From: Acidobacteriota bacterium
GTDB lineage: Bacteria; Acidobacteriota; Blastocatellia; Pyrinomonadales; Pyrinomonadaceae
Assembly (NCBI GenBank): GCA_003223975.1
Contig: QHXS01000043.1
Span: 1 to 52,173, forward strand
Direction: 5' to 3'
DNA length: 52,173 nucleotides
Shown here: piece by piece, positions 4,099 through 52,173 of the stretch
Layout: each line of letters starts with the position of its first letter
How positions within the stretch are numbered: position 1 is the stretch's first letter
Notes under the pieces: generated by a model
Database searches by the model: none
Told to the model about the DNA's origin: nothing
Seen by the model: the letters and a program-made list of their open reading frames with translations, nothing else
Position numbers and translations under genes: made by a program

Positions 4099-4108
4099 CG
4101 GGATAGCT

Positions 4109-4588: not shown

Positions 4589-4605
4589 CCTCCAATCACG
4601 AGTTC
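4589..4605 (-). promoter_or_regulatory. Conserved 17-mer GAACTCGTGATTGGAGG, copy B
   Basis: Exact copy of 4109-4125. It lies immediately after the stop of the 4604-4933 gene. Confidence 0.6.
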
Positions 4606-4933: not shown

Positions 4934-4956
4934 GGCATGGGACTCCTTTGCCCGCC

Positions 4957-4985
4957 ATGATGGCACACTTATGCACAGTTGTCAA
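4957..4985 (-). promoter_or_regulatory. Sigma70-like early promoter: TTGACA-N17-CATCAT with TGC extended -10
   Basis: Minus strand reads TTGACAACTGTGCATAAGTGTGCCATCAT. It aligns column for column with the promoters at 8304, 47917 and 51867. Confidence 0.6.
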
Positions 4986-37478: not shown

Positions 37479-37839
37479 GATGGACTATGGCTCCCTCTGG
37501 TAGTGGCCTTCCCAGAGCTTTTTCAGCTAGGTGGCGATGTTCTAGTTTATAACCACCATCTACAAAGATATACCTATATCCATTCGGAGCTGTGTAGCCA
37601 GATCCTTTTGGTGCTATCAATCTATCATAGGTTCCTCGATCATACATTCTGTGATAGTGGGCCATGCAGACGCGGAGGGTGACAGCAGGAGCTGTGCAAC
37701 CAGGAGCGACGCAGGTAGTTCCTTTGTTATAGAATTTTGTGAAGTGAGGATCACCATATTTTTTGACTCTCTCGTAGTGCTGACAACACATCTTCTTTTT
37801 CCTGGCTGGTTTCTCACAGCCATCTACAATGCAGCTCAT
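37348..37839 (-). CDS. HNH homing-type endonuclease (163 aa)
   Basis: HHVNGRRGDNSYGNLVLCPNERYHKLLH is the H-N-H core. Two C-x4-C...C-x2-H zinc-ribbon repeats lie upstream. Confidence 0.8.
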   Translation of the reverse strand: MSCIVDGCEKPARKKKMCCQHYERVKKYGDPHFTKFYNKGTTCVAPGCTAPAVTLRVCMAHYHRMYDRGTYDRLIAPKGSGYTAPNGYRYIFVDGGYKLEHRHLAEKALGRPLPEGAIVHHVNGRRGDNSYGNLVLCPNERYHKLLHKRTAWYQIKASLGLDR

Positions 37840-39425: not shown

Positions 39426-39753
39426 TGCGCCCGATCCTACGGTGAGCAGTCTTCATGTCCGGGAAATACTTTTCAAGTCTGTGGCGTGCTTGCTCCATTC
39501 CATTCGACTCTCCATAATCCATATAAAAAACTACTTTCTCAGCATGAGGCCAGAAATAATATCCCAGTTGAATACCTAGCTTACGTGAAGCTGGATCTCT
39601 ATCATCGAATACCCAGGTGAAGAAACCATGTGATGCAAATGGAACTTCACCCAGAGATATAGCGTGCCGAATCGCTCGCCCGAGGTAGATGCGATTACGT
39701 TCCAACTCTCCAGCGTAAGGAGATTCGATGATGGTGAGGCCGTTGGGGACCAT
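39418..39753 (-). CDS. Hypothetical 111-aa protein inserted between the exonuclease and polymerase genes (possibly a deoxyribosyltransferase-like fold)
   Basis: IIESPYAGE...GEVPFASHGFF...VVFYMDYGESNGM loosely recalls DUF4406/DUF1937-type proteins. The call is low-confidence. Confidence 0.35.
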   Translation of the reverse strand: MVPNGLTIIESPYAGELERNRIYLGRAIRHAISLGEVPFASHGFFTWVFDDRDPASRKLGIQLGYYFWPHAEKVVFYMDYGESNGMEQARHRLEKYFPDMKTAHRRIGRND

Positions 39754-40809
39754 CTATTCCTCCCGCTTGGTTTCTTGTGAACCATGTCTGGCACGCATAC
39801 GCTTCCATGCAACGTCGTTAGTGTATATTGAACCCAGGAATGCCAGGCTCTTAGGTAGTTCGGGATACATACTGTGATGCAATATCATAGTGTCTTCTAG
39901 AAAGCCTGGAATAGGTATTAACATGTCCCACAAATATTGGCAGTCATATATCCCGTTCTGGAATAGCACCCGAGGGTGGGAGGAAAGCAAATGAAAAATC
40001 TCGTCCCAAACAATACACTCCTCAACTTCATTCCAGTGACTCCAATCGGGTTTCTCTTTGTTCCAAAAGGGAATCACGAGAATGTTGCTAGGGGTGGTGG
40101 CGAAAGCGATGCTGGTTATTTGCCTCTTCTCAGTCTCTATATCACAAGAGAGAATGGGAGAGCGCTGGGCGTCTAGCAACCAGAGGAGAGTTTCTTCAAG
40201 CCCAGAGTTGATTTTAATCCTTCGCTCCGTGCGCCGGATCTCCGGGAACTCCATCTCCAGCTTCGCCTTTGCGAGATCTTGTAGTACCACGACTCTCCAA
40301 GCCCAATTTCTGAGCACAGCAGCGGGGTGGTAGGTCGGAAGAACTTTAAGACCCGGAATGAGAGTGGAAGAGGATACAGTACCCCGCGAACTGCCGATGG
40401 CTGCGGAGCCCGTAAGGGCCCAGAGGGCGGTGTTGCCGAGGGCGACGCAGAGGTTTGGACGTAGTTCATCCAGCTCACTCTTGAGGCGATCCAGTTCTGG
40501 TAGGAGGTCGGGGTGGAGATACTTGCCCAGCGAGAGCGGCGGGAGGCTATAGCTCGAAGGGAGATCTTTCTTCGAGACACAGAAGGACTCCATCTTATTG
40601 TTAGGTGGACGAGTCCATAGAACGTTGGTAAGATAGCATCTGCTGCGCTCAATACCAGACTCCTGCAAGAGCGCGGTGAACTCTTGGCCCGCTTTCCCTA
40701 CAAAGGGGATGCCAATCATCTCCTCTGTCTCTCCAGGGGCTTCACCTACAAATGCTATGCGGGCGTCAGCTGGACCAACTGCCTTGATGCAGGGAAGGAA
40801 TAGGCTCAC
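39754..40809 (-). CDS. Family-4 UDG-like domain fused to a DnaQ-like 3'-5' exonuclease (351 aa)
   Basis: UDG motifs are FVGEAPGETEEMIGIPFVGKAGQEF and PTYHPAAVLRN. Exonuclease motifs are Exo I SCDIETE, Exo II FQNGIYDCQYL and Exo III-like YTNDVAW. Confidence 0.8.
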   Translation of the reverse strand: MSLFLPCIKAVGPADARIAFVGEAPGETEEMIGIPFVGKAGQEFTALLQESGIERSRCYLTNVLWTRPPNNKMESFCVSKKDLPSSYSLPPLSLGKYLHPDLLPELDRLKSELDELRPNLCVALGNTALWALTGSAAIGSSRGTVSSSTLIPGLKVLPTYHPAAVLRNWAWRVVVLQDLAKAKLEMEFPEIRRTERRIKINSGLEETLLWLLDAQRSPILSCDIETEKRQITSIAFATTPSNILVIPFWNKEKPDWSHWNEVEECIVWDEIFHLLSSHPRVLFQNGIYDCQYLWDMLIPIPGFLEDTMILHHSMYPELPKSLAFLGSIYTNDVAWKRMRARHGSQETKREE

Positions 40810-42089
40810 TTGCTGATCGCCCTGAGGGTGCGGAAGTTGCGCAGTGCAGTGCGAGCATTCTCCGCGAACTCTTCATTCTTCTCTAGACCAAAGACAAATG
40901 CAGCCCCCAATGACTCCGCAGCTCGAAGCGAAGAACCGCTACCAGCAGTAGGATCAAGAATACGAGAGTGCTCATCAACAAACATCTGCATGAAGTGGCG
41001 AAGAACTGGCTCGGGCTTTTCAGACTGATGGGATTTAGTACCAGTTGGAGCAGCGTAAGCGTTTGCCACGGCGCGAACAATGAGCCTGTCGCCGCGAGAA
41101 GCAATAAAGCAAGTCTCATAGATTCTCCTTGGGCCACGTTTTGGATCGGGCAGGATGCCTTTGTTATCGCTCTTGAGCCAAACTAAGGGGAAATCTTCGA
41201 GAGTCCATTCAGGCAGCCGGTGGGAGAAGAAGTCCCTGGTCTCACAGTAGTACTTCATAGAGAACCAGAACATCATATGAGCGCTGCTGGAAAGTATTCT
41301 ATTCTCGTTAGTCGCCAGAGATTCAAGTAGTTCCCAGTAAACGTTAGGGTCATCTTCGTAACCCCCGTAGGAATCTGAATTACCCTGGTCGGAGGTGTGA
41401 ATAGAGATGCCAAAAGGAAAGTCACAGTGGAGGAAGTTGAACAGAGGACCGTTGTAGAGAGGAGCCCATTGTGTAAAGTCTGCTGTGATGATGGACTCAA
41501 CAGGAGGGGGTGCAAGTGCTCCCTGTGGTCTCGTAATAGACTCGGTGAGATCGGCGAGGATAGTGTCATTCTTCCTTTGCACCTCCCGAGCGAGAGTATT
41601 GTGAGCCTGGCGCCAACCAGTGGCCTTCGCGATGCGTTCATTGCCAGCGAGGGCGGCGGTGCCGACTCCGATCATCATGCTCACAGTGCTAGTGGCGAGG
41701 CCAATGCTGTCTGCCGTTTGCTTCTGGGTCCACTCTGGGTCTAGCTTATGATAGAGCGAATGGATGCGGACTATCGCTCGCGTCTGGTCCTCCCAAGATA
41801 GATCCTTCCTCTTGAGGTTCTCTTCCAGCTCTATTATTTGAAGCTCAATAGGATCAAGCTCCGATGCAAAGCGAGCTGGGATATCATGCAGGCCGAGCTT
41901 AATGCTGGCTGCAAGCCGCCGCTCTCCACAGACCAGCACTAGATCTTCTGTCACTACGATGGGCTGGATGACACCTCGCGCCTTGATGCTAGGGAGCAAA
42001 TCATCCAGCACAAGGTCTGTGCGCTGTCGCTCATCTCGTAGCACAGTGATATCGCTGCAAGCGATCCTGCGGTATCGGTTGGTTAGCAT
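40806..42089 (-). CDS. ParB-like N-terminal domain fused to an N6/N4 DNA methyltransferase (427 aa)
   Basis: The ParB box is IQPIVVTEDLVLVCGERRLAAS. The catalytic motif IV variant is HCDFPFG and the AdoMet motif I is ILDPTAGSGSSLRAAESLG. The order IV...I indicates a beta-class enzyme. Confidence 0.75.
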   Translation of the reverse strand: MLTNRYRRIACSDITVLRDERQRTDLVLDDLLPSIKARGVIQPIVVTEDLVLVCGERRLAASIKLGLHDIPARFASELDPIELQIIELEENLKRKDLSWEDQTRAIVRIHSLYHKLDPEWTQKQTADSIGLATSTVSMMIGVGTAALAGNERIAKATGWRQAHNTLAREVQRKNDTILADLTESITRPQGALAPPPVESIITADFTQWAPLYNGPLFNFLHCDFPFGISIHTSDQGNSDSYGGYEDDPNVYWELLESLATNENRILSSSAHMMFWFSMKYYCETRDFFSHRLPEWTLEDFPLVWLKSDNKGILPDPKRGPRRIYETCFIASRGDRLIVRAVANAYAAPTGTKSHQSEKPEPVLRHFMQMFVDEHSRILDPTAGSGSSLRAAESLGAAFVFGLEKNEEFAENARTALRNFRTLRAISK

Positions 42090-42342
42090 ATGTTCCTCCC
42101 AGTCAAAATGCTAATGCTGGTGGGGAGAGGAAGGCTCACCTCCTCCTCTCCCCTTCACCCAGGCTCATCGTTGAGAGTCGTCTGGGTGAAACTAGTGGGG
42201 GCTGCACTGAACTAGCTACAAATGCAGTGCAGCCCCAAGTGGCCTTTCAACGGCCGCTGTCTCAGCTCAGGCTATCCAAACCAAAAGACAGCTATGCTGG
42301 CTCGTAACCACTCGTGAGTCCTTAAGGGGCTGTTAAGCCCCT
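42090..42342 (-). other. Highly structured 243-nt intergenic region with four stem-loops
   Basis: Stems were read directly: 42122-42153 (10 bp), 42156-42188 (7 bp), 42198-42236 (12 bp, 15-nt loop) and 42325-42342 (7 bp, over the stop codon). The region also holds the 17-mer ATTAGCATTTTGACTGG at comp 42099-42115. Confidence 0.6.
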
Positions 42343-42809
42343 GCTCCCGCCTGGCCAGTGAGCCGGGCAATGTTGTTGTAGATGATCGGCGAGCCATCTT
42401 CGTTCCGCTTCTGTTTGTCCGGGGTCTGGTTGACCTGGACAAAGACAGGAGCGTTCTTCACCTCCGGCAGGGTCTCGCCGAAGGATCGCCCTGCGGTTTC
42501 CACTCCGCAGCTCCTAATAAATTCCGAGAGCTTCCACTGGTTCTCCTCATCCAGCCAGAAGTCATGGCGCATCCGACGGTCTGCGACGCGGATAGGTTTT
42601 CCCTTGGCGTCAACCAAGTCCGCCGCTTCGATGCCATCGGAGGCTGCAGTGATGCGGATGTTCACGCGAACTTGGGGTGTCCTGTCCGCTGTGTTGCTCT
42701 CAATCGGCTGGTAGTCAACCACGACTCCCTCATAGGTGCCAACAGGGAGGATAGCAGGACGCTCTGCATCATCGACTCGCTTTGATAGTAAGCTCTTAAA
42801 ATCAGCCAT
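42333..42809 (-). CDS. DUF669-like protein (ssDNA-binding/recombination accessory candidate)
   Basis: Start trimmed to MADFKSLL, 6 nt after GGAG. The gene sits beside an AAA_24-type ATPase, the usual partner of DUF669. Confidence 0.45.
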   Translation of the reverse strand: MADFKSLLSKRVDDAERPAILPVGTYEGVVVDYQPIESNTADRTPQVRVNIRITAASDGIEAADLVDAKGKPIRVADRRMRHDFWLDEENQWKLSEFIRSCGVETAGRSFGETLPEVKNAPVFVQVNQTPDKQKRNEDGSPIIYNNIARLTGQAGAGA

Positions 42810-42836
42810 CTTCATCTCCATCAGTTAGTTAGTCAG

Positions 42837-43700
42837 CTACTCTGCTGCTTCAGAAATCAGGGGCTTCACCCCTGATGGGTTAGAGCCGAGCACATCGTAG
42901 AAGTACTGCGCTAGCCCGGTCTCAATGGGGTATTCTCTCTTCACACCAGTGGGGTTACTAGACTTCAGTCCGAGGGAAACCATCGGGACTGTGGTGATCT
43001 TCCTCTTCATGGCAGGACCAACGCCAGTGCAAACTACTTGCAGGGCATCGTTGAAGTAAGAGCCAACTTTCTCCGGTAGCTTGTTGCCCGGAGCAGATGG
43101 GAATCCACCCTCAAGTTCCCTGCCCAGCACCTGTAGATTTTCCTTCCCGCCCCTAATTTCGCGCCAGCGCCAGTCAATATGTGTAATTACACACACCTGG
43201 CATTTGATCTCACTATCCTTCAGCATCTCAAGCAGCTCTTTAATCATCGTTTGCACTATCCCCCAATCAGGGAGGGTAGGATGTTGCCCAAGTTTGGCGT
43301 TAAGAGACTGGTGGTATCGCATTGCGGCTTCGCCACAGTGGGTAAGGGAGTCAATGACCAGGATGGAATTAGAGTCCCACGAGGACACTGGTCCAAGGGA
43401 ATCGGACTTCCAGTTCGAGAGCAAAGTGACGGCCTTAGTCCATGCCACGAGAGGGGTGCGAGGCAGTAGTCTCCCTTGCACGTTCTTGAAAGAATCTGTG
43501 CATTTCTCCACGTAGACGCGGGACATAGCATCTGGATCGTCCTTCAAGAGGGAGGCCAAGATCTGAGTTCCGTTGTCAAAGTCCAGGATGCGGAGGGAAT
43601 ACCCGGCGCGAGCGAGGCTAGCTAGCGCTCCTGTTTTCCCCATCCCAGAGTCGGAGACTAAGAGGAGCATCATACGTTCTGTTGGGGTGAGACGAGGCAT
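42837..43700 (-). CDS. RecA-fold AAA_24/Sak4-like ATPase (287 aa)
   Basis: Walker A LLLVSDSGMGKTG and Walker B ILVIDS are present, in the recombination-module context. Confidence 0.65.
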   Translation of the reverse strand: MPRLTPTERMMLLLVSDSGMGKTGALASLARAGYSLRILDFDNGTQILASLLKDDPDAMSRVYVEKCTDSFKNVQGRLLPRTPLVAWTKAVTLLSNWKSDSLGPVSSWDSNSILVIDSLTHCGEAAMRYHQSLNAKLGQHPTLPDWGIVQTMIKELLEMLKDSEIKCQVCVITHIDWRWREIRGGKENLQVLGRELEGGFPSAPGNKLPEKVGSYFNDALQVVCTGVGPAMKRKITTVPMVSLGLKSSNPTGVKREYPIETGLAQYFYDVLGSNPSGVKPLISEAAE

Positions 43701-43770: not shown

Positions 43771-44727
43771 TCACACATCTCCCCTCACTTCAAGAGGATC
43801 CCAGATCTTTCTGGTGAAGCTCGCTTGCAGGAGAGTGTCTCGCATAGCGGGGGCTGAAGAGCAGATGCTGCGAAAGCTGCAACCTCCATAGTGCCCGCAA
43901 GCCTTGTCGTTCTTGGGCCAGAAGCTCTTGCGAGCATAGGCTTCTCCCAGCTTGATATACCAGCCGGCTTCTTCGAGCCATTCATCAAGTTCCTCCCTGT
44001 GGCGAGTGGTGAAGCCACGCTGAAAGCGGGTGAAGTTAACTAGAATCTGCGCGCCAGATATGATGACCCCTTTGACTGGCTGCTCATACACTATCTGGGA
44101 GGCTAAGGTGTAGAGGGACATCTGATTATCTGGATTGAACATGGAGAACCATTCAGGGGATAGACTATATTTGCTGGTCTTATGATCCATCGCCCAGATC
44201 TGGGAGTTAAATTCCACAAGCCGGTCTAGATGCCCACAGAGCATAGCTCTTTGACCTGAAACCTCATATGGAATCTCGAACCGGAAGGATAGTTCGACGG
44301 CGGGCTTCCCATTGTTAAGCAGAAGAGTACGGGCGGAATCCTCTTCGAATTGCTCCAGATACCAGACAACTGAGCGTAGTAAAGTAGCTCGGTTCTTGTT
44401 GGGATCATCGGAACTCCAGGGACGCCAGCGTCCATCGGGGAGCCGAGTGATGGTGGCAGTGAGACAGTAATGGACGCTTGCGTCCACTGCATCATCATGG
44501 GAAAGATCGGCGGCTCGCTTGTGGTCATAGATCTCTATCGCTTTGTGGTAGTGCAGGCCAAAGGTGAGATGGACGGACTCGAGCGCGGGTATCCAGCCCT
44601 CGAGAATGGTGTACTGGTATTTCCTCGGGCACTCTTTGAGCAGGCCAAGGCTTACGCTGTCGAAAGCGAATTGCAGGCCAGGCACTTCTGGGGAAAATGC
44701 TTTGCGGCTAGTTGTGTCGGAGATCAT
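43771..44727 (-). CDS. Cas4/RecB-like PD-(D/E)xK exonuclease with a Cys cluster (318 aa)
   Basis: The nuclease core is GHLDRLVE...WAMDHKTSK. There is an N-terminal Cys (LKECPRKYQY) and a C-terminal CGHYGGCSFRSIC. Confidence 0.7.
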   Translation of the reverse strand: MISDTTSRKAFSPEVPGLQFAFDSVSLGLLKECPRKYQYTILEGWIPALESVHLTFGLHYHKAIEIYDHKRAADLSHDDAVDASVHYCLTATITRLPDGRWRPWSSDDPNKNRATLLRSVVWYLEQFEEDSARTLLLNNGKPAVELSFRFEIPYEVSGQRAMLCGHLDRLVEFNSQIWAMDHKTSKYSLSPEWFSMFNPDNQMSLYTLASQIVYEQPVKGVIISGAQILVNFTRFQRGFTTRHREELDEWLEEAGWYIKLGEAYARKSFWPKNDKACGHYGGCSFRSICSSAPAMRDTLLQASFTRKIWDPLEVRGDV

Positions 44728-44796
44728 GGTGGTGAGCCTTCAAAATTTTGCGCTAGGATGGGGACTGATGTGCTTACATGTATGGCTGCTCGGTTG

Positions 44797-45117
44797 TCAT
44801 TTTGGGAGCTCCGGTCGGACGCCAGCGGCGATCTCGACGGCACGCTTTGCTGTTGGCACGTCCTGCATGCAGCCGAGGCGTTTGAAGATTGACCACTCGA
44901 CCTCCATCGAAGGCACGTTTATTGGTTCGTCTTGGTTCTGCGGCCGCGCCCAAGCGTAGCAGGAATCGCCGCTGTCGCCTTCGAACTGTGATGGCTCGTC
45001 CTGTCCTGTGAACTGCTCGATCCAGCCGAGTAATAGGCCGTCAGCATCACGCAGCTCGTCGTAGAGCGCGTAGTGATCGCTCTTAAAGGTCTCTCCTGGC
45101 TTCCAGGTTGCTGTCAC
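44797..45117 (-). CDS. Hypothetical protein (106 aa)
   Basis: ORF-track ORF, coupled to the upstream gene by an ATGA-type overlap. Confidence 0.5.
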   Translation of the reverse strand: MTATWKPGETFKSDHYALYDELRDADGLLLGWIEQFTGQDEPSQFEGDSGDSCYAWARPQNQDEPINVPSMEVEWSIFKRLGCMQDVPTAKRAVEIAAGVRPELPK

Positions 45118-45524
45118 TTCTTCCCTCCCTGTGCTTTTGGGGCAGGCTTGAGGGCGACAAACGGGCGGGCACGGAGACGGGTGTACAGGTTACGCAAACA
45201 CCACAACTCTTCGGCTCTGACTATTTTTCCAAACCTGCCTGTTATTTCGTCGGATGGCGCAAAGCGTTCTTCGTGATAAACGTCGGCGGCTCTTGCGAAT
45301 GGCGCTAGCGCCTGCGCCGCCTCCTCCAGCACGGCGGCTTCGATCAGGGGAATGGCGGCGGTGAGGGCGACATTGGCTTCCGGGACAAAGTTCGGCCATC
45401 CGGCATCCTCAGATGCTTTATACCGCTCAGGGGTTAGTGGCTCACGATGTCGCGAGTTAAAGTCTAAGCGTTGTCGTGCCAACGCCCGAGCCACCGCCTC
45501 CACGATTGCCGGGTCGAGCTTCAT
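45114..45524 (-). CDS. Hypothetical protein (136 aa) in a GC-rich segment
   Basis: ORF-track ORF. It is the longest and best-behaved of many overlapping frames. Confidence 0.5.
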   Translation of the reverse strand: MKLDPAIVEAVARALARQRLDFNSRHREPLTPERYKASEDAGWPNFVPEANVALTAAIPLIEAAVLEEAAQALAPFARAADVYHEERFAPSDEITGRFGKIVRAEELWCLRNLYTRLRARPFVALKPAPKAQGGKK

Positions 45525-46231
45525 GCCTTCCCCTCCTCTGGTCGGGTGGGAGGGACTTCAACGAACTGGCCGTCTTCAAACTCCTTGATTGGCCGTGCCC
45601 AGAATGCGCTGCCCCATCCTCCAATGTCGTGACGGTAGAAGACGATTGGCGTAATGTCATCGACGCCATCCCCGGATGCATACAGACCGCGCCCAATTTC
45701 AGTTACGAGCGCACCACTGTTTACGTGTCGCCAGCGCTTCCTCTCCTCTGTCCGGGCGGGAGGGGGAGGGGCTGCGGCGAGTGGAGTTGCTGCGGGGCGA
45801 ATAGCTGCGATGGCAGCGACGGCCGCTGCTCGGATGCGAGCCTCCTGCTTTTCGTCCATGTCACTCCACGACATGGGGCGCTCGACTTCGGCGACGTTCT
45901 CATGGAGCGCACGCAGGATCGCCCACGCGACGCGCTCAGTCTCAGCGTCGAGTTCACCAATGCTGGCGTAGCCTTTCTGCCACCCCTCCGGCGCTGCTGA
46001 CCGCTCCAGGCGGTCGAGGGCGGCGAGGGCCTGAAGGTATTGGGTGCTGCACCACACTTCTACGTCACGACCATCATACAGCGTGTGGTCGATGCACCAC
46101 GCTAGTTCCAGTTTAGCGAGAAGCGCGCTCGCCTCCTCCAGCGCCGCGCGCACCTCTGCGATGTCGGTCATCTCCACGGGATCGCTCCGAAAACGATACC
46201 GATCTCCAGTAAGCAGAACAGCCAAAACCAT
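45521..46231 (-). CDS. Hypothetical protein with a DUF1653-like C-terminus (236 aa)
   Basis: C-terminal RWRHVNSGALVTEIGRG...IVFYRHDIGGWGSAFWARPIKEF resembles the Y-R-H-x-K-G...W-x-R-P pattern. Confidence 0.5.
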   Translation of the reverse strand: MVLAVLLTGDRYRFRSDPVEMTDIAEVRAALEEASALLAKLELAWCIDHTLYDGRDVEVWCSTQYLQALAALDRLERSAAPEGWQKGYASIGELDAETERVAWAILRALHENVAEVERPMSWSDMDEKQEARIRAAAVAAIAAIRPAATPLAAAPPPPARTEERKRWRHVNSGALVTEIGRGLYASGDGVDDITPIVFYRHDIGGWGSAFWARPIKEFEDGQFVEVPPTRPEEGKA

Positions 46232-46317
46232 AGGTCCTGCGAACCTTGCTCACAGATTGAACTCATCCCTCACCCCCTTCGGCTTGCGTGGCGGAGTGGG
46301 TACAGCGCCCGCATTGG

Positions 46318-46551
46318 CTAGAGCCCAAGATCAGCGAGGGAGATTGGCCCTGTGGTCTTCTTTCCATTCTTTCTCTTTGGCTTCTCCTGCTGCTCCTCTT
46401 GCATGAATTGAAAGCGCTGGGCGCGAAGGGTGCGAACGATGGCGTCCCTGTCGGCGCGAGTGAGTTCCTCCGGATCGCGCGACATTATTTCCTGCATGGA
46501 GATCACCGGGTTGGCTTCATCTAGGGGCGAAGCCCCTGGGCTATCACTCAT
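46318..46551 (-). CDS. Early protein with a C-terminal ISLADLGL tail (77 aa)
   Basis: Start trimmed to MSDSPG after GAGGAGG. It ends ...EKPKRKNGKKTTGPISLADLGL*. Confidence 0.6.
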   Translation of the reverse strand: MSDSPGASPLDEANPVISMQEIMSRDPEELTRADRDAIVRTLRAQRFQFMQEEQQEKPKRKNGKKTTGPISLADLGL

Positions 46552-46714
46552 CTGCTTCCTCCTCTTCTCCCTCTTCAAGTCCTGTAATAAAGTCCTCTAT
46601 TGTTTCCTGAATCTCCGCAGCGAGTGCTGTTATTATCTCTGTGTTGCCGGCGTAGCTGGTATCGCTGAGAAAGAGTTCTGCGAGATCGTAGCATTTGGGA
46701 TCAAAGGTAGTCAT
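46544..46714 (-). CDS. Small very acidic ORF (56 aa), below the track cutoff
   Basis: MTTFDPKCYDLAELFLSDTSYAGNTEIITALAAEIQETIEDFITGLEEGEEEEADE. The RBS is GAGGAGG. It has an ATGA overlap upstream and its stop overlaps the next start. Confidence 0.45.
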   Translation of the reverse strand: MTTFDPKCYDLAELFLSDTSYAGNTEIITALAAEIQETIEDFITGLEEGEEEEADE

Positions 46715-46950
46715 TGGTGCGCCTCCTCAGCTAGTGCTTCAAGCTCCTCGTCATCTAGTGGCCGGATTGGTTTCTGGCGAGAGGCTTGTAGATCCTGCAT
46801 TCTCTTTACGCTATTGCGGACTATCGTGCGAACAGCTTTGCCCACTCCCACCGATTCCTCCCTTCGGTAGTTGCTTCTCAGCCACTCCAAGTCGGCTGAG
46901 AAGAGGTTGATGTGAATGCGTTCTATTGGTTCGTCCTCCTGGCGTGGCAT
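46711..46950 (-). CDS. Ribbon-helix-helix (CopG/Arc-like) regulator candidate (79 aa)
   Basis: ERIHINLFSADLEWLRSNY...GKAVRTIVRNSVKRM fits a beta-alpha-alpha RHH pattern. Confidence 0.45.
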   Translation of the reverse strand: MPRQEDEPIERIHINLFSADLEWLRSNYRREESVGVGKAVRTIVRNSVKRMQDLQASRQKPIRPLDDEELEALAEEAHQ

Positions 46951-46977
46951 GGTGGAGATGGCTCCTAGTGCGTTGTT

Positions 46978-47289
46978 TCAAGGGGAGATGTCGATCGGTA
47001 GGCTGGTATCTAGTTCTTCTTCAGGCGGCAAAGCCGCCTGGCGCTTCTTTACAATCCAAAGCTCTGTCCGTGGACTATAGGGCGATGGGATGAAAGATAG
47101 TGCCCGTAGGGCGCTATCTCCATTGGTGCTTCTCGCCTGAGAGAACATAGCCTTGGCATCGTGGACATTGGAGACTACTACAATGATGCCCAGTGGACTC
47201 GCCGCTGCCTGATACATGAGAGATACGAGGTTCTCATGAGCGGAAGTTGGAAGGGGGATAGGCATGGTGTTACTGGGTCCCTCTTCCAA
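46978..47289 (-). CDS. Hypothetical protein (103 aa; TTG start)
   Basis: TTG lies 7 nt after TGGAGC. An alternative ATG occurs at codon 9. Confidence 0.45.
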   Translation of the reverse strand: MEEGPSNTMPIPLPTSAHENLVSLMYQAAASPLGIIVVVSNVHDAKAMFSQARSTNGDSALRALSFIPSPYSPRTELWIVKKRQAALPPEEELDTSLPIDISP

Positions 47290-47303
47290 CTAGATTGCTC
47301 CAA

Positions 47304-47861
47304 TTACTGGGCGGTAGCTTCTGCACCTTGGGCGGGAAGTTCCAGCTCGTCGAGAGTGATCGAAGTCTTGGCGCTGATCCTCCGCTGGGCCTCTTCTCTG
47401 ATCTCTGGCCGCTTCGCGAGGATCCCGGGGACGAGCCCAGCGATCTGCTCTGCGTCCAGCTTGCCATAGCCCTTCGACTTCGCGTGCTGGCGGATGAGAT
47501 CCCTCGCCATGACGTGAGCTTCGCGCTCCACAGGATCTCTTGGTAGCCCCGCTTCGCCAGCGCCAGAAGCTGCTCGGGTGCCAAACTCATAGTCATTGGC
47601 GTAGGAGCTAAACTCCTGCTGGAGATCGTCCGGAGCCGCCTCGCCATCTCCCGGGAACTCTCCACCGTTCTTCTGCGCAGCTTCCTTCGCGGACTTCACT
47701 TTCTTGGCAAAGTTATTCCGAAGGTTCTCAGCAAAAGTCTGGTTGAGGGTGTTCGCCTCGTTCTCTGTAAGAACATGGCCGGTTTTGTAGGGAGCTGGGG
47801 CGTTGAAGAGCAGACCTTCAACCTTGATCCTCCGCTGTTCGCTAGTTCCATTCTCGCTCAT
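47304..47861 (-). CDS. Hypothetical early protein (185 aa), first gene of its operon
   Basis: The ATG lies after AGGAAAGGAAAAACTACC, about 50 nt downstream of the predicted TSS. Confidence 0.6.
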   Translation of the reverse strand: MSENGTSEQRRIKVEGLLFNAPAPYKTGHVLTENEANTLNQTFAENLRNNFAKKVKSAKEAAQKNGGEFPGDGEAAPDDLQQEFSSYANDYEFGTRAASGAGEAGLPRDPVEREAHVMARDLIRQHAKSKGYGKLDAEQIAGLVPGILAKRPEIREEAQRRISAKTSITLDELELPAQGAEATAQ

Positions 47862-47882
47862 GGTAGTTTTTCCTTTCCTATG

Positions 47883-47896
47883 GTGGGGGCGGTTGC
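47883..47896. repeat. 14-bp direct repeat gtgggggcggttgc (left copy)
   Basis: Identical to 47996-48009. Together the two copies bracket the promoter-plus-palindrome cassette. Confidence 0.85.
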
Positions 47897-47916
47897 CCCG
47901 ATGCTTTGACGTGGTG

Positions 47917-47960
47917 ACTTTGGCACAAAATTAAAGGGCTGTCAATGGGAATGTGTAGGG
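47917..47960 (-). promoter_or_regulatory. Early promoter cassette: CTACACAT element, then TTGACA-N17-CAAAGT (TGC extended -10)
   Basis: Minus strand reads CCCTACACATTCCCATTGACAGCCCTTTAATTTTGTGCCAAAGT. Confidence 0.55.
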
Positions 47961-47963
47961 TTA

Positions 47964-47992
47964 TGGGCGTTTTCACAATGTGAAGAAGCCCA
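47964..47992. promoter_or_regulatory. 29-bp palindrome family, copy d
   Basis: TGGGCGTTTTCACAATGTGAAGAAGCCCA. Arms are TGGGC/GCCCA and TTCACA/TGTGAA. It abuts the upstream element of the promoter. Confidence 0.65.
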
Positions 47993-47995
47993 TCA

Positions 47996-48009
47996 GTGGG
48001 GGCGGTTGC
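47996..48009. repeat. 14-bp direct repeat gtgggggcggttgc (right copy)
   Basis: Identical to 47883-47896. Confidence 0.85.
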
Positions 48010-48014
48010 TTCTG

Positions 48015-48239
48015 TCATAGGCCTAGCTTCTTTCTCTCTTCTTCGTAGAGAGCCTCAGCTCGATTCTTCTTGAGCTGGGGTTGCTGCAACTGCAACTCTC
48101 GCACTACCCAAGCTTTGCGGATCGCTGCCATCTCTTCGAGTGAGAGCGTGTGGGTGCGGGCGAGAGCTATTAAGGTGGGGAGATCTAGTGTGAGTCCCCC
48201 ACTCCTCAAGTCGGATAGCTTTTCCTGCCAGCTCTGCAT
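48015..48239 (-). CDS. Hypothetical protein ending KKLGL (74 aa from an internal ATG)
   Basis: Track ORF 48015-48404 overlaps the 48256-48549 gene in another frame. It was trimmed to MQSWQEK just after that gene's stop. The RBS is weak. Confidence 0.4.
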   Translation of the reverse strand: MQSWQEKLSDLRSGGLTLDLPTLIALARTHTLSLEEMAAIRKAWVVRELQLQQPQLKKNRAEALYEEERKKLGL

Positions 48240-48255
48240 GTGCTGTGCCTGGGGA

Positions 48256-48549
48256 CTAGAGCCCCAGGTCGGCGAGGGAGAGGAGCTGCTTAGCGGCTTC
48301 TCGTTTGCTGTACTGGCCTCCGGTGGAAATTCCTGCTGCGGCATTTTGGCGAGCCCTTTGTTTGAAGTACTCTGTGTGGTGATCTCCCCAGGCCTGAGGG
48401 CCAAACCTCCATCTCCCTATGGCGTAGATCATACCGAGGTAGGTGGAGTCTGGGTCCTCTTTCGAGCTTTGATAGATCTTAAAAAGCTCTTCAAGGGGAC
48501 AGTTAAAGAGCTGGTGCTCAAGCACCAGCCTCGCGTGGTCTAGGTCCAT
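48256..48549 (-). CDS. Early protein with a C-terminal LSLADLGL tail (97 aa)
   Basis: It ends ...QYSKREAAKQLLSLADLGL*. Confidence 0.55.
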   Translation of the reverse strand: MDLDHARLVLEHQLFNCPLEELFKIYQSSKEDPDSTYLGMIYAIGRWRFGPQAWGDHHTEYFKQRARQNAAAGISTGGQYSKREAAKQLLSLADLGL

Positions 48550-48772
48550 CGAAGATCTCCTCTAGGTTGTCCTCAATGTTCTTCCCGTTGAGGATGTTGA
48601 TGTGGGTAGCCCTCCGCTTGAATACTAAGTGGCCGAAGGTGCCAGGGTAGCGCTGGCGCTCCCTTCGCAGGGCGTTAAATATCGTTGCGAGAGTGCGGGG
48701 CTCTGCGCTAACGCGCAGGCCCCCCTTCTTGCTCTCTGCGGCGCGAACTAGAATACTGTGCGCTTCTGTCAT
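48518..48772 (-). CDS. Hypothetical basic protein (84 aa)
   Basis: It has an ATGA overlap with the helicase stop. Confidence 0.5.
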   Translation of the reverse strand: MTEAHSILVRAAESKKGGLRVSAEPRTLATIFNALRRERQRYPGTFGHLVFKRRATHINILNGKNIEDNLEEIFDGPRPREAGA

Positions 48773-50334
48773 ACAAATTGCTCCAAATTGGCCAGAATTA
48801 ATGTATCCTTCGCCCTGGTTTCAATGACGTACTGGAGGTTCATCTCCTGCTCCATGAGCCAGGGCTGTTCCAGTTCCACATTGCGAGCCCACTTCGAGGG
48901 GATGCGCCAGGGATCAAGGTGGAGCACGCAATGCCACTCCAAGCCCTTTGCTTTGTGCCCGGTGGACAGGGTGATCTGGCCGTTAGCTGCCTCGAAGAGC
49001 TGCTCAAGACAGGAGATGATGTGGCGGACTGTTGTGATATCACCACTGGACTCAATCACAGCCATGATGGACTCGTACTGATCTTCTACGCGATTTCCCT
49101 TCTCTGGCTTGTCCGCTGCGTTGGCTAACCGCATCTCCTTCTCTTTCCAGGAGGTGAAAGCAGGAACAAACTCATCCACACCAAGGATCTTCGTTCCAGC
49201 GATCTTCTTGACTAGCGTAGTGAGGGACTTGCCGAAATCCCTGCCGAGGACTTTGATCCCAATCCGCTTGCGGATAAGAGAGAAGGCAAGGCTAATAAGA
49301 GGGGCGTTGTTGCGGCAGAGGATAGCGTTGGGCATCACGCTCTCAGCGGCCGATGGCAGGGTCCATTGCTTCTGATCACGCCAGTCGAGGAGGCGCCCAT
49401 CTGGGGCCTCGGGCGCCGCAGTGTATTGAGGGGCATGGCCTAATTGCCTCGCCACTACCACCTTTGGACACCGCCAGGTGACGGTAAGAGGGAGATCAAT
49501 CCAGTCCGGCTTCAGTTCTTTGATCTTCCGCATAGAACTGCTATCTGCTCCTCGGAATGCATAGATGCCCTGCTTCTGATCGCCAGCGATGATAAGGCGC
49601 TGCCCGCAGGACTTCATGAGCTGAAGCCTGTTAAGGTGGCTGATATCCTGGCTTTCATCGCAGATAACAGTGTGAAATTTCTGGTAGAGGCCAGAGAAGA
49701 GGCACGACATGTAGATCTGGTCATCAAAGTCGATCGTCCCTGCCAGCGCAAGATCAATAGCCTCACACAAAATCTGCCGAGCGCCCACCATGAGAGCTTC
49801 TGTAAGGTCGATGTTAAGGGCGTCAGCTGCGCTCTCCCATCCCCAAGAGTCATCAGGCAGTAGGCTGCGCCGGGCCTGCGGATAGCGGGCAGGAACCAGT
49901 CCCAGCATCTTGGCTCGCTTGACGAGATTGGAAAGGTTCCCCCACTCGTCGTCAGAAACCCCACCAAGCTTTTTGGTGTATGCAGTTGTGAGGCGGGCGA
50001 TTTTTCTGTCATCTAGGATTAGCCTTCGGCCAGTTGCGGAAGCGAATGCCCTGTGGCCGAGAGCATTGAAGCTCTTCACGACGACCCAGGGGGCGAGAGG
50101 AGGCAGCTCTTTGTTCTCTCCTCGAGGTTCTATAAAGACCTTCTCAAGGTCCAAGCAGTTCTTCTTGTTGAAGGCGAGAAGGAGAATAGACTTCGTGGGA
50201 AGGTGAGGGACTAGGAGTTCTATTGCTGTGGTCTTGCCAGTGCCGGCCAGGGCGAAGATCATGAGATTAGCATCGCTGCTTCGCGCTGCGTCCATGATGG
50301 CGAGCTGTTCAACAGTTGGTGGAAAGTGTGTCAT
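48769..50334 (-). CDS. UvrD/Rep-like superfamily-1 helicase (521 aa)
   Basis: Motif I FALAGTGKTT, motif II VICDESQDIS, motif III IIAGDQKQGIYAFRGA and motif VI LSTGHKAKGLEW are present. Confidence 0.85.
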   Translation of the reverse strand: MTHFPPTVEQLAIMDAARSSDANLMIFALAGTGKTTAIELLVPHLPTKSILLLAFNKKNCLDLEKVFIEPRGENKELPPLAPWVVVKSFNALGHRAFASATGRRLILDDRKIARLTTAYTKKLGGVSDDEWGNLSNLVKRAKMLGLVPARYPQARRSLLPDDSWGWESAADALNIDLTEALMVGARQILCEAIDLALAGTIDFDDQIYMSCLFSGLYQKFHTVICDESQDISHLNRLQLMKSCGQRLIIAGDQKQGIYAFRGADSSSMRKIKELKPDWIDLPLTVTWRCPKVVVARQLGHAPQYTAAPEAPDGRLLDWRDQKQWTLPSAAESVMPNAILCRNNAPLISLAFSLIRKRIGIKVLGRDFGKSLTTLVKKIAGTKILGVDEFVPAFTSWKEKEMRLANAADKPEKGNRVEDQYESIMAVIESSGDITTVRHIISCLEQLFEAANGQITLSTGHKAKGLEWHCVLHLDPWRIPSKWARNVELEQPWLMEQEMNLQYVIETRAKDTLILANLEQFV

Positions 50335-50387
50335 TGTAGTTCTCCGGAGGCCGGCGGGATTGCCGGCTCATTGATGTTCAGTTGCTG

Positions 50388-50699
50388 CTAGTCAATCCTA
50401 GCGATCTCGAATGAGCCATCCTTCTGCATGATCCCCACCCAGGAGGACTCGTAGAAGAGGATGGTTTCGTCACGTAGCTGGGCACGAGCCAGGGGCCGCA
50501 TAGTAGGGTCTCCCGGATACTTCAAAGAGAAGGTCTGAGGGTTGAACTTAAAGCCAGTGAATGGATCCCATCCTCCTCCATGCTGATAGTTATCATGGAT
50601 CTGCTTCCAGGCTGGACGAGGGTCAGCTTCGCTCAGCCAGCCTGGAAGGAACCCTAACCACTCGGGCGTCATTTGAGGGTGTAGGATGTGCCAGTTCAT
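50388..50699 (-). CDS. Hypothetical protein (103 aa)
   Basis: It has an ATGA overlap with the upstream ORF. Confidence 0.55.
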   Translation of the reverse strand: MNWHILHPQMTPEWLGFLPGWLSEADPRPAWKQIHDNYQHGGGWDPFTGFKFNPQTFSLKYPGDPTMRPLARAQLRDETILFYESSWVGIMQKDGSFEIARID

Positions 50700-50854
50700 T
50701 TCTTCGCTCGCTTCTTGGCTCGCTTCTTAGAGGCGGGCTTCTTGCCCGCCTCCTTAAAGCCGTCAGTGGCGTAGTAAAGCGCCACCTGCTTCTTGGTGTA
50801 AGTCTTGCCCGAAGGCGACTTGAACTTGCCGCCACTAACTTTCTGGAATGGCAT
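50696..50854 (-). CDS. Small lysine-rich basic protein (52 aa)
   Basis: Start trimmed to MPFQKVSGGKF after GGAAGGAGACAGTG. It ends KKPASKKRAKKRAKK. Confidence 0.45.
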   Translation of the reverse strand: MPFQKVSGGKFKSPSGKTYTKKQVALYYATDGFKEAGKKPASKKRAKKRAKK

Positions 50855-51182
50855 CACTGTCTCCTTCCTCTTCAAGAGGCGAAGCCTCCTCCTCATCTCC
50901 AAGTTCCACCTCCACGCGGGGGTAGCCTGAAGAGCTGAAAGTAAGGTGAGCTTCGGGAGTCCCCTCCAGGTCGAAAACGGGAGCCCAGTCGCTCGCATGT
51001 TCTCTCGCGATGTAGCCAAGCAAAGTGCCGTCGAGAGTGAAGACCTGGATTGCGTTCTCATCGTAGGCGTTCTCCGGCTCTCGGACTAGAGTCAAGGGGT
51101 CTCCAAAGCCGAGGGTGAGAAGTTTCTCGCTTGCGCCCTCGTGGTGGCGCATCCCGACGAGGGGTGCTGTGATAGTGGTCAT
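50835..51182 (-). CDS. HIRAN-domain protein (115 aa)
   Basis: APLVGMRHHEG...GDPLTLVREPENAYDENAIQVFTLDGTLLGYIAREHA matches the HIRAN pattern (VG..y.G...L.REP.N.YD.NAI.V....G..lGYi). Confidence 0.7.
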   Translation of the reverse strand: MTTITAPLVGMRHHEGASEKLLTLGFGDPLTLVREPENAYDENAIQVFTLDGTLLGYIAREHASDWAPVFDLEGTPEAHLTFSSSGYPRVEVELGDEEEASPLEEEGDSDAIPES

Positions 51183-51352
51183 TGTGGTAGCTCCTCTCCG
51201 GTGAGTTCAAGATAAACTACTTCCAACATCAGGCGGTCATTCTTGTCCTCGATCCCCTCTAAGAGATCGCGAATGACAGATGGTGGTGCGAACTGCAAGA
51301 GCCATTGCTTCACATGCGCCCGCTGGACCATACGAACGTTAGAGTCGGCCAT
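51179..51352 (-). CDS. Small ORF (57 aa), below the track cutoff
   Basis: MADSNVRMVQRAHVKQWLLQFAPPSVIRDLLEGIEDKNDRLMLEVVYLELTGEELPQ. It has TGATG and ATGA overlaps with both neighbours. Confidence 0.4.
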   Translation of the reverse strand: MADSNVRMVQRAHVKQWLLQFAPPSVIRDLLEGIEDKNDRLMLEVVYLELTGEELPQ

Positions 51353-51585
51353 CACGCGGCCTCCGCAGAAGCATCACTGTGAGCCCGCGTGACTGAGTTG
51401 ATGGCGTCAGCGAGATCCTGCGTATATCCCAGGTCATTAAAGAAGATGACTATGGGGGCGTCGATGCCAGTGGTGCTGAGATTCAGGGTCGCACCAAAGC
51501 CCTCGCCGAGATCGAAGGAGCGGGCGAGGAGCTTGTGCTCGCGAAAATGAAAAGAGTGGGTAGATGCGATGAGTGTGGTCATCAT
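51352..51585 (-). CDS. Hypothetical protein (77 aa)
   Basis: The RBS is GAGGAGG, with an ATGA overlap upstream. Confidence 0.5.
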   Translation of the reverse strand: MMTTLIASTHSFHFREHKLLARSFDLGEGFGATLNLSTTGIDAPIVIFFNDLGYTQDLADAINSVTRAHSDASAEAA

Positions 51586-51830
51586 TCGGCCTCCTCTTCA
51601 AGCGCCCGCACCAGGTCACGAAGCCATTCGGCCTCGTTCGCGCCGTGTTTGCGAAGATGCACAAGCATAGCTGCTCGATGGTTGTGATACTTGTGATAGG
51701 CTAGGGGGTTGTGGGTAGACCAGCCGGGGGTGCAATGCGCCCGCCAGGTGGCTACTGCAAGATCAAACTGCTCCCAAGCAGAAGTTCCCGGGCCGGTTGG
51801 ATCTGTGAACTTCGGACGAGTAATGGGCAT
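51582..51830 (-). CDS. Hypothetical protein (82 aa), first gene after the promoter at 51867
   Basis: Start trimmed to MPITRPKF, 9 nt after GGAG. The track start at 51878 lies upstream of the predicted TSS. Confidence 0.5.
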   Translation of the reverse strand: MPITRPKFTDPTGPGTSAWEQFDLAVATWRAHCTPGWSTHNPLAYHKYHNHRAAMLVHLRKHGANEAEWLRDLVRALEEEAE

Positions 51831-51866
51831 GTGGTGAGTCTCCATGCGGAGTTGTTCCGCATGGTC

Positions 51867-51911
51867 ATAATGACACACCCATGGACAGTTGTCAATGGAA
51901 TTGTATAGGGG
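51867..51911 (-). promoter_or_regulatory. Early promoter cassette: CTATACAAT element, then TTGACA-N17-CATTAT (TGT extended -10)
   Basis: Minus strand reads CCCCTATACAATTCCATTGACAACTGTCCATGGGTGTGTCATTAT. It is the best match to consensus among the family members. Confidence 0.65.
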
Positions 51912-51927
51912 CGCAAAGCGCCCCTAT
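51905..51927 (-). terminator. Perfect 10-bp GC-rich hairpin 17 nt after the tailspike stop
   Basis: ataggggcgc aaa gcgcccctat. It overlaps the upstream element of the next promoter and has no clean U-tract. Confidence 0.5.
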
Positions 51928-51943
51928 GGCGCGTCAATGCTAG

Positions 51944-52173
51944 TTAAAGGGTTCCGTAGGCGGCGAGATACCAGGCGGTGCCGTTGTAGGTCACATCACA
52001 CCAGCTATTTGTGATGAGGGGCTTCAAAGGACCTGTTCCGACGTTGAGAACTCCGGCGCCACTGCCAGTGCGGGTGATCTTAAAGGTAGCGCCTTTGGTA
52101 GCGGGAACATTAAGGCCGAGAGCGACACTGCCACTGGCGATTGCGGCACTGTAGAGGATTTGCTGTGGATCTA
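51944..52173 (-). CDS. 3' end of the tailspike gene. Codons at 51944-51994 are unique; 51995-52173 duplicates 1-179.
   Basis: Reading across the junction gives ...LITNSWCD|VTYNGTAWYLAAYGTL* with TAA at comp 51944-51946. The total of 3369+51 = 3420 nt is divisible by 3. Confidence 0.8.
   Translation of the reverse strand, partial: DPQQILYSAAIASGSVALGLNVPATKGATFKITRTGSGAGVLNVGTGPLKPLITNSWCDVTYNGTAWYLAAYGTL
51995..52173. repeat. Right copy of the exact 179-bp terminal direct repeat
   Basis: Identical to 1-179. Confidence 0.95.

Follow-up and report, generated by a model that had tools for sequence, protein, structure and literature searches.

Why would unrelated small proteins encoded by one phage end in the same seven amino acids? 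This question is raised by a stretch of 52,173 nucleotides (hereinafter the window, that is, the whole of the DNA analyzed) from an Acidobacteriota assembly (GCA_003223975.1, contig QHXS01000043.1, positions 1 to 52,173), which is the complete genome of a podophage with a unit length of 51,994 base pairs (bp). The window begins and ends with an exact direct terminal repeat of 179 bp (1-179 is identical to 51995-52173) and was therefore taken as a complete phage genome; the nearest cultured relative, the Caulobacter podophage Kuura, likewise has direct terminal repeats (PMC9959647). Among all open reading frames (ORFs) of the window, with all six frames checked, exactly three end in the heptapeptide SLADLGL followed by a stop codon, all on the minus strand. 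It is very probable that this tail is a short linear docking motif that tethers unrelated small proteins to one common partner, and in the following sections, we present the evidence that leads to this view and weigh the candidates for the partner.

An identical tail on unrelated proteins

The first carrier of SLADLGL, a protein of 77 amino acids (aa) encoded at 46318-46551 on the minus strand (tail codons at 46321-46341, stop codon at 46318-46320, alternative TTG start at 46578), has a small helical body that is joined to the tail by a Lys-rich linker, and was assigned, as 46318-46578, to a family that we denote cl0. The second carrier (97 aa; 48256-48549, minus strand; tail codons at 48259-48279) has homologs in close relatives only, and all 14 of these, with 69-99% identity, end in SL[AS]DLGL after a variable linker. 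The third carrier (109 aa; 4604-4933, minus strand; tail codons at 4607-4627; possible GTG start at 4966) is a distant member of another family, cl1, with a "GSPTQ" motif (profile match of 4604-4966, E=1.1e-6). With the last 10 residues removed, the three bodies are mutually unrelated in BLASTP comparisons, so that the claim of the initial annotation that three unrelated small proteins share this end is confirmed, coordinates included. The tail also behaves in homologs as that annotation proposed to check, being kept while the linker and the body diverge, both in the carrier families and among close homologs.

Two details of the initial annotation had to be abandoned. The ORF at 48015-48239, which it listed as a fourth example on account of its ending, ...KKLGL, lacks the L-x-D part, and is not a carrier because it has no homolog in the 80 related loci described below and its ortholog in the close relative L095 ends in ...KRKAGL. 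Furthermore, the Gln in QLSLADLGL, the end of the 4604 copy, which had been read as clamp-like, is accidental, given that the L095 ortholog of this carrier ends in ...KRPLSLADLGL. No significant match to a Pfam or PHROG family was obtained for the carriers of the window, their neighbors, or 10 carriers from other loci. The carriers may be early proteins, a label that derives solely from their location in the replication arm of the genome.

Distribution of the tail among related phages

For comparison, we employed 80 related loci from IMG/VR that were fetched via the adjacent helicase (28-45% identity) and that, together with the window, make a set of 81 loci, designated where necessary by L numbers. 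Across this set, ORFs of at least 50 aa that end in LGL occur 68 times on the strand of the helicase versus twice on the opposite strand, with about 4.7 expected by chance from the frequency of internal LGL; a broader tail pattern yields 109 versus 5 ORFs by strand and is represented at least once in 56 of the 81 loci. In the consensus of 61 distinct tails, L or I is found at position -8, D, T or S at -7, L at -6 (53 of 61), E, A or K at -5, and D or E at -4 (50 of 61), followed by L-G-L, which was itself the criterion of selection; Lys and Arg account for 21% of the 23 residues that precede the tail. The motif has the form Phi-[S/T/D]-L-x-[D/E]-L-[G/x]-[L/I] and is located mostly at a free C-terminus on a flexible basic linker. 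Tandem copies of the motif occur, for example, DLLSDLGLGGDNPLDELGLK, and in many orthologs, one to five or more residues follow the motif, as in LGLE, LGLK, LDLDELLGKQL and INLASLGLKAPEVPAGSIIKRRV.

The tail is distributed in a modular fashion. The carriers comprise at least five multi-member families with unrelated bodies, in addition to singletons, and the share of members with the tail is 69% in cl0, 55% in cl1, 47%, 100% and 100% in three further families, and 13% in each of the families fam1 and fam6 that are discussed below. The helicase, AAA_24, exonuclease, DUF669, PolA, ParB-methyltransferase and primase families show shares of 0-3%, with isolated matches only (the DUF669-type candidate for SSB, a protein that binds single-stranded DNA, has the tail in 0 of 67 members), and in most of the remaining small families, the share is about 0%.

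Every carrier gene belongs to the replication arm, on the other strand from the structural genes, and none is found among the virion genes. This arrangement bears on the possibility that the tail is a capsid-targeting cargo peptide, in which case the carriers would be packed into procapsids and injected along with the DNA. The cargo peptides of encapsulins are C-terminal, follow flexible linkers on unrelated cargos, are of the L-G-I/L type (for example, ...GGDLGIRK) and dock on a shell of the HK97 fold, and pre-made proteins are injected by other phages, such as T4 (Alt and the internal proteins) and P1 (Dar). The Leu/Gly/Ile-rich core, the C-terminal position and the flexible linker are indeed common to the encapsulin peptides and the tail, and the major head protein of the phage matches a PHROG major-head family. 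However, the motif described here is acidic, its carriers belong to the replication arm, and the scaffold-like protein ends differently, in ...KEIWDVFGYN, all of which makes loading into the capsid a very improbable function.

Conservation within the cl0 family

The cl0 family, present in 68 of the 81 loci, offers the deepest view of the tail: a profile search of 1.84 billion proteins yielded 339 representatives at 50% identity, and the cl0 tail counts given here and below refer to the best 149 of these 339. All 149 display the same succession of a small body, a Lys/Ala/Pro-rich linker and an acidic-hydrophobic C-terminal motif. The ending is D-L-x-L in 114 (x = G in 71, D in 17, E in 9 and K in 9), D-L-[LF] in 18 and neither in 17. 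The core Phi-x-[DEN]-Phi-x-Phi is present within the last 14 residues in 96 of the 149 representatives versus 3 of the 481 control windows in the bodies, and of the representatives that seem to lack it, most still have ...PEDLGL or ...AEDLGL at the end. In the alignment, the tail Asp and Leu reach 4.2 and 4.0 bits, respectively, on par with the best body residues, compared with 1-1.8 bits in the linker, which is conserved in composition only; the choice of sequences favored G-L endings and so biases the values for Gly and the last Leu. Judging from these comparisons, [E/D]-D-L-G-L is the most invariant core of the tail. In the AlphaFold2 (AF2) model of the cl0 protein, residues 19-24 and 32-54 are helical, residues 55-71 form a linker of low confidence, and residues 72-75 make a helical turn; the predicted local distance difference test score (pLDDT) of about 58-64 for the linker and tail suggests a disordered terminus, as is characteristic of clamp-binding motifs.

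Among the 114 cl0 tails of the hexamer type, D-L-x-L, 94 are located at the very C-terminus, and the remaining 20 have 1-5 extra residues. The extreme C-terminal site and the non-polar last residues are compatible with the alternative, mentioned already in the initial annotation, that the tail is a C-terminal degron that gives early proteins a short life via ClpXP, ClpAP, Lon or FtsH; the timed removal of a set of proteins would be biologically sensible. The signal of an ssrA-like degron depends on the final residues and on a free carboxylate. The tail, however, is unlike the LAA-type degron ending and contains conserved acidic residues, the residues that follow the motif in the 20 tails as well as the longer extensions and internal tandem copies weaken this idea, and variation between genomes over 8-11 residues (see below) is unexpected for a protease tag. 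A role in degradation, therefore, appears quite improbable. Mimicry of the ClpP loop (IGF/IGL) was also considered and dropped, given that numerous orthologs have D, E, K, Q or N in place of Gly.

Selection on the protein and not on the DNA

The three tails in the window are encoded as TCC CTC GCC GAC CTG GGG CTC, TCC CTC GCT GAT CTT GGG CTC and AGC TTA GCT GAT CTA GGT CTT. More generally, where tail positions hold the same residue, the codon is also the same in 31% of the cases within genomes versus 28% between genomes, and a single Ser position of the tail is encoded by TCA, TCG and AGC across the three tails of L002. This level of codon identity, together with the alternation of TCN and AGY codons for Ser, indicates that the sharing of the tail is not due to a DNA repeat or recent gene conversion, both of which we exclude as the cause, and bears out the original proposal that the conservation is at the protein level.

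A different explanation at the level of DNA would deny the tail any protein function and attribute it to a constraint at gene ends, namely, a Shine-Dalgarno (SD)-like word, GAGGA, and an ATGA overlap with the next gene, or else to a dispersed repeat. The ATGA start/stop overlap is, in fact, more common at the ends of tail genes than at those of other genes (39% vs 25%), and so is an SD-like word in the last 18 nucleotides (50% vs 37%). Nevertheless, 61% of the tail genes have no overlap, the tails of the window (with GCC GAC or GCT GAT, and TAG or TGA stops) have neither the overlap nor the SD-like word, the Leu and Ser codons vary freely with same-residue codon identity at the background level, and the conservation tracks amino-acid classes among proteins that are no more than 50% identical. 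This explanation is thus close to refuted, and the enrichment is too weak for a ribosome-binding site or start overlap to be the main cause of the tail. Many tail genes end in ...GGN CTA TGA or ...TTA TGA, such that the ATGA overlaps the next start (for example, L002 8457-8459 and L008 12626-12628). The tail codons may double for translational coupling, the Glu-Asp codons, GAGGA, being SD-like.

Genome-specific dialects of the tail

The version of the tail differs from genome to genome and is common to the unrelated carriers within a genome. Among these dialects, L002 has three copies of DDS[IV]TLEDLGL, L008 has five of [ST]LEDLGL, and the window has three of SLADLGL; IDLxELGL is found in L014, L036 and L076, and VDLxDLGIL in L048, L049 and L054. 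Over the stretch of 8 residues that leads up to L-G, identity is 37.7% between unrelated carriers in the same genome (permutation p<0.0005), compared with 30.4% for orthologs of different genomes and a background of 24.4%, and the type of ending (LGL, LGLL, LGIL or LGLV) is concordant within genomes. Combined with the codon data, the dialects imply concerted change under selection, which is expected if all carriers of one genome fit one partner, the surface of which differs between lineages.

Given that the carriers are unrelated, that their tails are kept by selection at the protein level, and that the tails are retained in diverging homologs, a common partner is the natural reading; we infer from these observations both the binding itself and the identity of the partner. 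The original idea that unrelated small proteins share a tail stands: the carriers are unrelated proteins from outside the structural arm, and the tail is under selection as a peptide.

In one of the related genomes (L031; 18525-18908 and 7835-8224), a LAGLIDADG-like ORF (weak Pfam matches) ends in ...AREYNTLEELGL. Nearly the same 12 residues as in AREYNTLEELGL are found at the end of an unrelated carrier of that genome, ...PREYNSLEELGL, with different codons.

The host sliding clamp as a candidate partner

On the pattern of residues in the tail, the single most likely partner is the host's beta sliding clamp, with its hydrophobic cleft as the binding site, although this assignment has to be considered tentative. 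Peptides that bind the bacterial clamp resemble the tail in being short, often located at a disordered C-terminus, and common to unrelated proteins. They have been described as QLxLF or QLxLxL, and Pol IV of Escherichia coli carries such a peptide at its C-terminus, 346-QLVLGL-351, exactly as stated in the initial annotation (PMC4564189); a 2024 review gives the canonical motifs as Q-Phi-x-[L/M]-[F/L] and Q-Phi-x-[L/M]-x-[F/L] (PMC11139829). According to the same review, the Gln is important, not essential, although delta is the only known natural ligand without it and the delta peptide binds poorly; position 2 is tolerant, with Leu the best residue and Ala costing about 40-fold in affinity; position 3 is free, with Asp preferred; the decisive positions are 4 and 5/6; LF by itself binds subsite I, with LGL equivalent to LF in the case of Pol IV; and the cleft is near-invariant across bacteria (PMC11139829). 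If the tail binds this cleft, its last two leucines would occupy subsite I in the manner of L-G-L in Pol IV, and its Asp would take the favored third position; either host polymerases would then be shut out from the clamp, or the clamp would serve as a landing pad on replicating DNA. There are precedents for phage proteins of this kind: Mor and MuC of phage Mu use the host clamp (PMC12867686), whereas gp33 and gp55 of T4 use T4's own clamp (PMC2988020).

In the tail, [D/E]-L-G-L matches positions 3-6 of the hexameric clamp motif, with position 5 free in both. Position 3 of the hexamer-type cl0 tails is Asp in 94, Glu in 12 and Asn in 8 of 114, the search pattern having required one of these three residues, and the respective column of the cl0 alignment is Asp in 86 of 88 sequences; at positions 4-6, the window has L-G-L, and cl0 has L-x-[L 95, I 11, F 5, V 3]. 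Furthermore, 114 of the cl0 orthologs have a hexamer-like D-L-x-L and 18 have a pentamer-like D-L-[LF], an alternation that is seen also in the clamp motifs. In Kuura, the endings are ...NIDDLFSE and ...IDDLLSTL.

Several observations, however, weigh against the clamp. Among the 114 hexamer-type tails, Gln is never present at position 1 (Leu 69, Asp 14, Ala 7), position 2 is mostly not aliphatic (E 29, L 25, D 21, G 13, A 10, K 9, with Ala in the window), and the conserved upstream Leu of the tail lies one residue further from the terminus than in the clamp motif; the sole QL in the window, in the 4604 copy, is not conserved in the ortholog. Dialects of 8-11 residues, which the clamp motif lacks, fit an invariant cleft poorly and are unexpected because the cleft is near-invariant, unless less conserved surfaces beside it are also read. 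The replication enzymes of the phage contain neither the tail nor any conserved canonical clamp motif, and the near-confinement of the exact heptapeptide to this phage group in IMG/VR fits a private phage receptor equally well. The absence of the tail from the phage enzymes also implies that it is not a replisome tool-belt, so that, if the clamp is the target, the carriers would be blockers or adaptors.

The closest precedent in logic is T4, where gp43, gp33 and gp55 have interchangeable, highly similar acidic-hydrophobic C-terminal clamp tails on variable unstructured linkers (PMC2988020); what is alike is a near-identical acidic-hydrophobic tail that follows a variable linker on unrelated proteins. 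Unlike the phage in the window, however, T4 encodes its own clamp (gp45) and clamp loader, and the T4 polymerase itself carries the tail, in contrast to the enzymes of the phage studied here. Neither a sliding clamp nor a loader was detected by Pfam or PHROG matches among the window ORFs scanned, with small ORFs only partly covered, and to this extent, the initial statement that the phage has no clamp holds. In phage Mu, small regulatory proteins, the transcription activators Mor and MuC, likewise engage the host clamp via x-x-[D/E]-L-F at a terminus: for Mor, DLF on its own is enough, the motif of the Mor/C family reads Qx[DE][LM]F, and over-expression is toxic through clamp titration (PMC12867686). 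The differences are that, in Mu, the Gln is conserved (Qx[DE][LM]F, QPDLF), and a single protein family with a known DNA-binding fold is involved, whereas the carriers described here belong to several families, with bodies of no recognized function. Extending the clamp scenario, one can imagine, with due caution, that podophages of an entire clade equip a changing set of small effectors (three to five or more in each genome) with a clamp-like plug that lacks Gln and would dock on one host hub, most plausibly the clamp, with the flanking dialect tuned to the host in each lineage.

A phage-encoded receptor and the four-gene cassette

About as likely as the clamp, and hence also tentative, is the possibility that the tail docks on a co-evolving receptor encoded by the phage itself and represents a private code of the phage group. 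The logic has a model in phage T7, where the acidic tails of gp2.5 and gp4 bind the T7 polymerase. The receptor could be a conserved protein of the same module without a recognized function, such as fam0 (46978-47289), or an enzyme of replication or recombination (the UvrD-like helicase, the AAA_24/Sak4-like protein, the PDDEXK exonuclease or PolA). The dialects, maintained by selection and not by gene conversion, are consistent with such a receptor, as is the observation that at least 19 of the 25 matches to the exact heptapeptide in IMG/VR (two overlapping scans) belong to the group. The lack of an acidic tip in the DUF669-type SSB candidate also favors this possibility.

The conservation of a cassette of four genes, fam1 (185 aa), fam0 (103 aa), fam6 (79 aa) and cl0 (77 aa), located at 46318-47861 on the minus strand of the window and kept in more than 65 of the 81 loci, points in the same direction. 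Within this cassette, fam0 (minus strand), a family of proteins of about 75-100 aa, lacks the tail, adjoins carriers, and is represented by one or two genes in each genome, with invariant Ala, Gly and Arg residues; no family of the module is more abundant (123 members in 75 loci), and fam0 is a candidate for the phage-encoded receptor. No relative of fam0 was found by per-member Pfam or PDB profile searches, and the lack of a recognizable fold or family counts against this assignment. A comparison of tail class with ten conserved phage families gave nearest-neighbor concordance of 0.58-0.71 for all of them, as common phylogeny would produce, and this covariation test is uninformative because all ten families follow one phylogeny. 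Moreover, the heptapeptide is also found in some bacterial proteins, few in number, and in an unrelated prophage (see below), which a private phage receptor would leave unexplained.

Two other members of the cassette carry the motif in part. The fam1 protein (185 aa; 47304-47861, minus strand) contains a degenerate internal copy, ITLDELEL, at 47337-47360, followed by 10 residues, and a second fam1 paralog in other genomes ends canonically, in ...SLADLGL or ...DLEALGL. The AF2 model of fam1 (pLDDT 86) shows a beta-hairpin and five helices, with low confidence for the 18 C-terminal residues; Foldseek found no match to this model in PDB or BFVD, and the fam1 profile matched only apolipoproteins among PDB sequences, a compositional similarity that we disregard. 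In fam6 (46711-46950, minus strand), which is ribbon-helix-helix-like by eye and has no significant Pfam or PHROG match, tail-like endings (ITLEEIEA, VTLEDLA) are found in 13% of the members, in other genomes.

The tip of single-stranded DNA-binding protein and other host hubs

The tail could also mimic the ligand of another host hub, chiefly the C-terminal tip of SSB, jamming or engaging the proteins that read this tip, or else might target, for example, RNA polymerase. The SSB tip, DDDIPF (PMC8509808), is a recruitment hub for at least 12 proteins (PMC3000357); in general, such tips consist of acidic residues followed by [I/L]-P-F-COOH. The core of the tail, [E/D]-D-L-G-L-COOH, is patterned similarly (acid, acid, aliphatic, small residue or Pro, hydrophobic, carboxylate); in a cl0 sub-clade, only ...PEDLGL, ...SAEDLGL or ...SDEDLGL is found, and the succession of body, flexible linker and tip is the same as in SSB. 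On the other side of the balance, the hallmark Pro-Phe of SSB is replaced by Gly-Leu, and the linker is basic rather than acidic. The pockets that accommodate the SSB tip read the free carboxylate, whereas in many orthologs of the carriers, residues follow the motif. Furthermore, the carriers have no Pfam or PHROG match that would indicate an oligonucleotide/oligosaccharide-binding (OB) fold, and the DUF669 SSB candidate is tail-less. The topology of the network also differs: in the case of SSB, one protein offers its tip to many receptors, whereas here many proteins offer the tail. On balance, mimicry of SSB or another such hub ligand seems unlikely.

Tail-like endings outside the phage group

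A DNA-pattern scan for [S/T...]LEDLGL followed by TGA in 596 Gb of bacterial and archaeal genomes yielded 54 stretches, of which 18 apparently represent one actinobacterial family and 15 are noise, with a few suggestive add-ons. The 18 actinobacterial matches were rejected: judging from Pfam analysis of one member, they appear to represent a phosphoribosyltransferase family, the C-terminus of which reads TLEDLGL by coincidence. Given that, by our estimate, about 10 real proteins ending in LEDLGL are expected by chance, the scan is weak evidence and serves as a lead only.

The suggestive cases are small stand-alone proteins and include a RAMA/DUF4357 protein of Halomonas (L117 3512-3997), in which an extension, [LVI][TS]LEDLGL, follows the domain; an HNH domain protein from an alphaproteobacterial metagenome-assembled genome (MAG), with the same extension (L103, minus strand, ending at 2280); an Mrr_N protein (L126 6381-6881), with the heptapeptide as an extension after the domain; and a similar-looking protein of Methylocapsa, without a Pfam match (L111 1350-1856), again with the same extension. 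Homologs on Azonexus and Cupriavidus plasmids end without it. The addition of this peptide to restriction-associated DNA-binding proteins could be due to chance or could represent the same docking signal in cellular proteins.

In the replication module of a prophage or mobile element of Selenomonadaceae (L134 3179-3652, minus strand; L139 35-58), a 149-aa protein at the position of PcfK ends in ...APSESKAAPAGGFVLSLEDLGL. The order of genes in this module is SF2 helicase, PriCT_2/AAA_25 primase-helicase, RusA, the 149-aa protein and PcfJ. By eye, the body of the protein looks helical, and it is followed by a linker rich in Ala and Pro and by the ending ...GGFVLSLEDLGL, which is the architecture of the phage carriers in an unrelated element. 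Together, the heptapeptide add-ons in bacterial proteins and in an unrelated prophage weakly hint at a host receptor. Separately, in Rhodospirillales MAG contigs from two genomes, an ORF of 340-400 aa with a signal-peptide-like N-terminus ends in ...SLK[TS]LEDLGL (L089 2060-3094, the same as L147, and L131); it sits between ORFs that, by eye, are portal-like and capsid-like.

The phage genome and its relatives

The genome shares its two-arm layout with Kuura; no close cultured relative was found in a megablast search of 44000-52000 against cultured phages. The contigs that encode the homologs are viral contigs from soil or metagenomes. The structural arm, on the plus strand, includes the large terminase (15315-17006), the portal (17003-19063) and the major head protein (20192-21454). 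The replication arm, on the minus strand, encodes a deoxynucleoside monophosphate (dNMP) kinase (3502-4287), a primase/helicase (36099-37478), the family-A polymerase (37836-39425), the presence of which the initial annotation had correctly stated, a ParB-methyltransferase (40806-42089), the SSB candidate (42333-42821), which shows a weak DUF669 match, the Sak4/AAA_24-like protein (42837-43700), the PDDEXK exonuclease (43771-44727) and the UvrD-like helicase (48769-50334). A DUF7768 gene (39418-39753) is located immediately upstream of the polymerase gene, and upstream of this gene in turn, a polymerase-associated ORF of 351 aa (39754-40809, minus strand) matches the N-terminal part of a PHROG polymerase family. 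The orthologs of this ORF in L092 and L095 have a precomputed match to the UDG superfamily (PF03167), and in L093, the match at this position is to DNA_pol_A_exo1. Among the accessory genes found in the same arm of relatives are one that directly follows fam1 in L092 (10981-12306) and encodes a 441-aa protein with weak VWA and faint TROVE matches, and one for a HIRAN-domain protein in L095 (5192-5569).

Concluding remarks

That unrelated proteins share a C-terminal plug for a hub is a known principle; new are the present motif, its carriers and its genome-specific dialects, none of which we found described in the searchable literature. Short linear motifs that plug into hubs are central to the biology of eukaryotic viruses and their hosts, whereas few have been documented in phages, the main phage-related examples being the clamp tails of T4, the Mor/C motifs of Mu and the tips of SSB. 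The motif described here occurs on at least five families without a known function, in a large group of uncultured phages with a single cultured relative, Kuura, and identification of the partner would give dozens of ORFan families a first functional property.

The implications would differ depending on the partner. If it is the clamp, the accepted consensus of clamp-binding peptides would widen, and the tails would become natural peptide leads against a validated antibiotic target; should the scenario of multiple effectors that dock on the clamp be correct, the tail would be a modular device for host takeover or for coupling to replication, and clamp ligands without Gln would have been systematically overlooked. 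If, on the other hand, the partner is encoded by the phage, the dialects would constitute a clean natural system of co-evolving peptide-receptor pairs.

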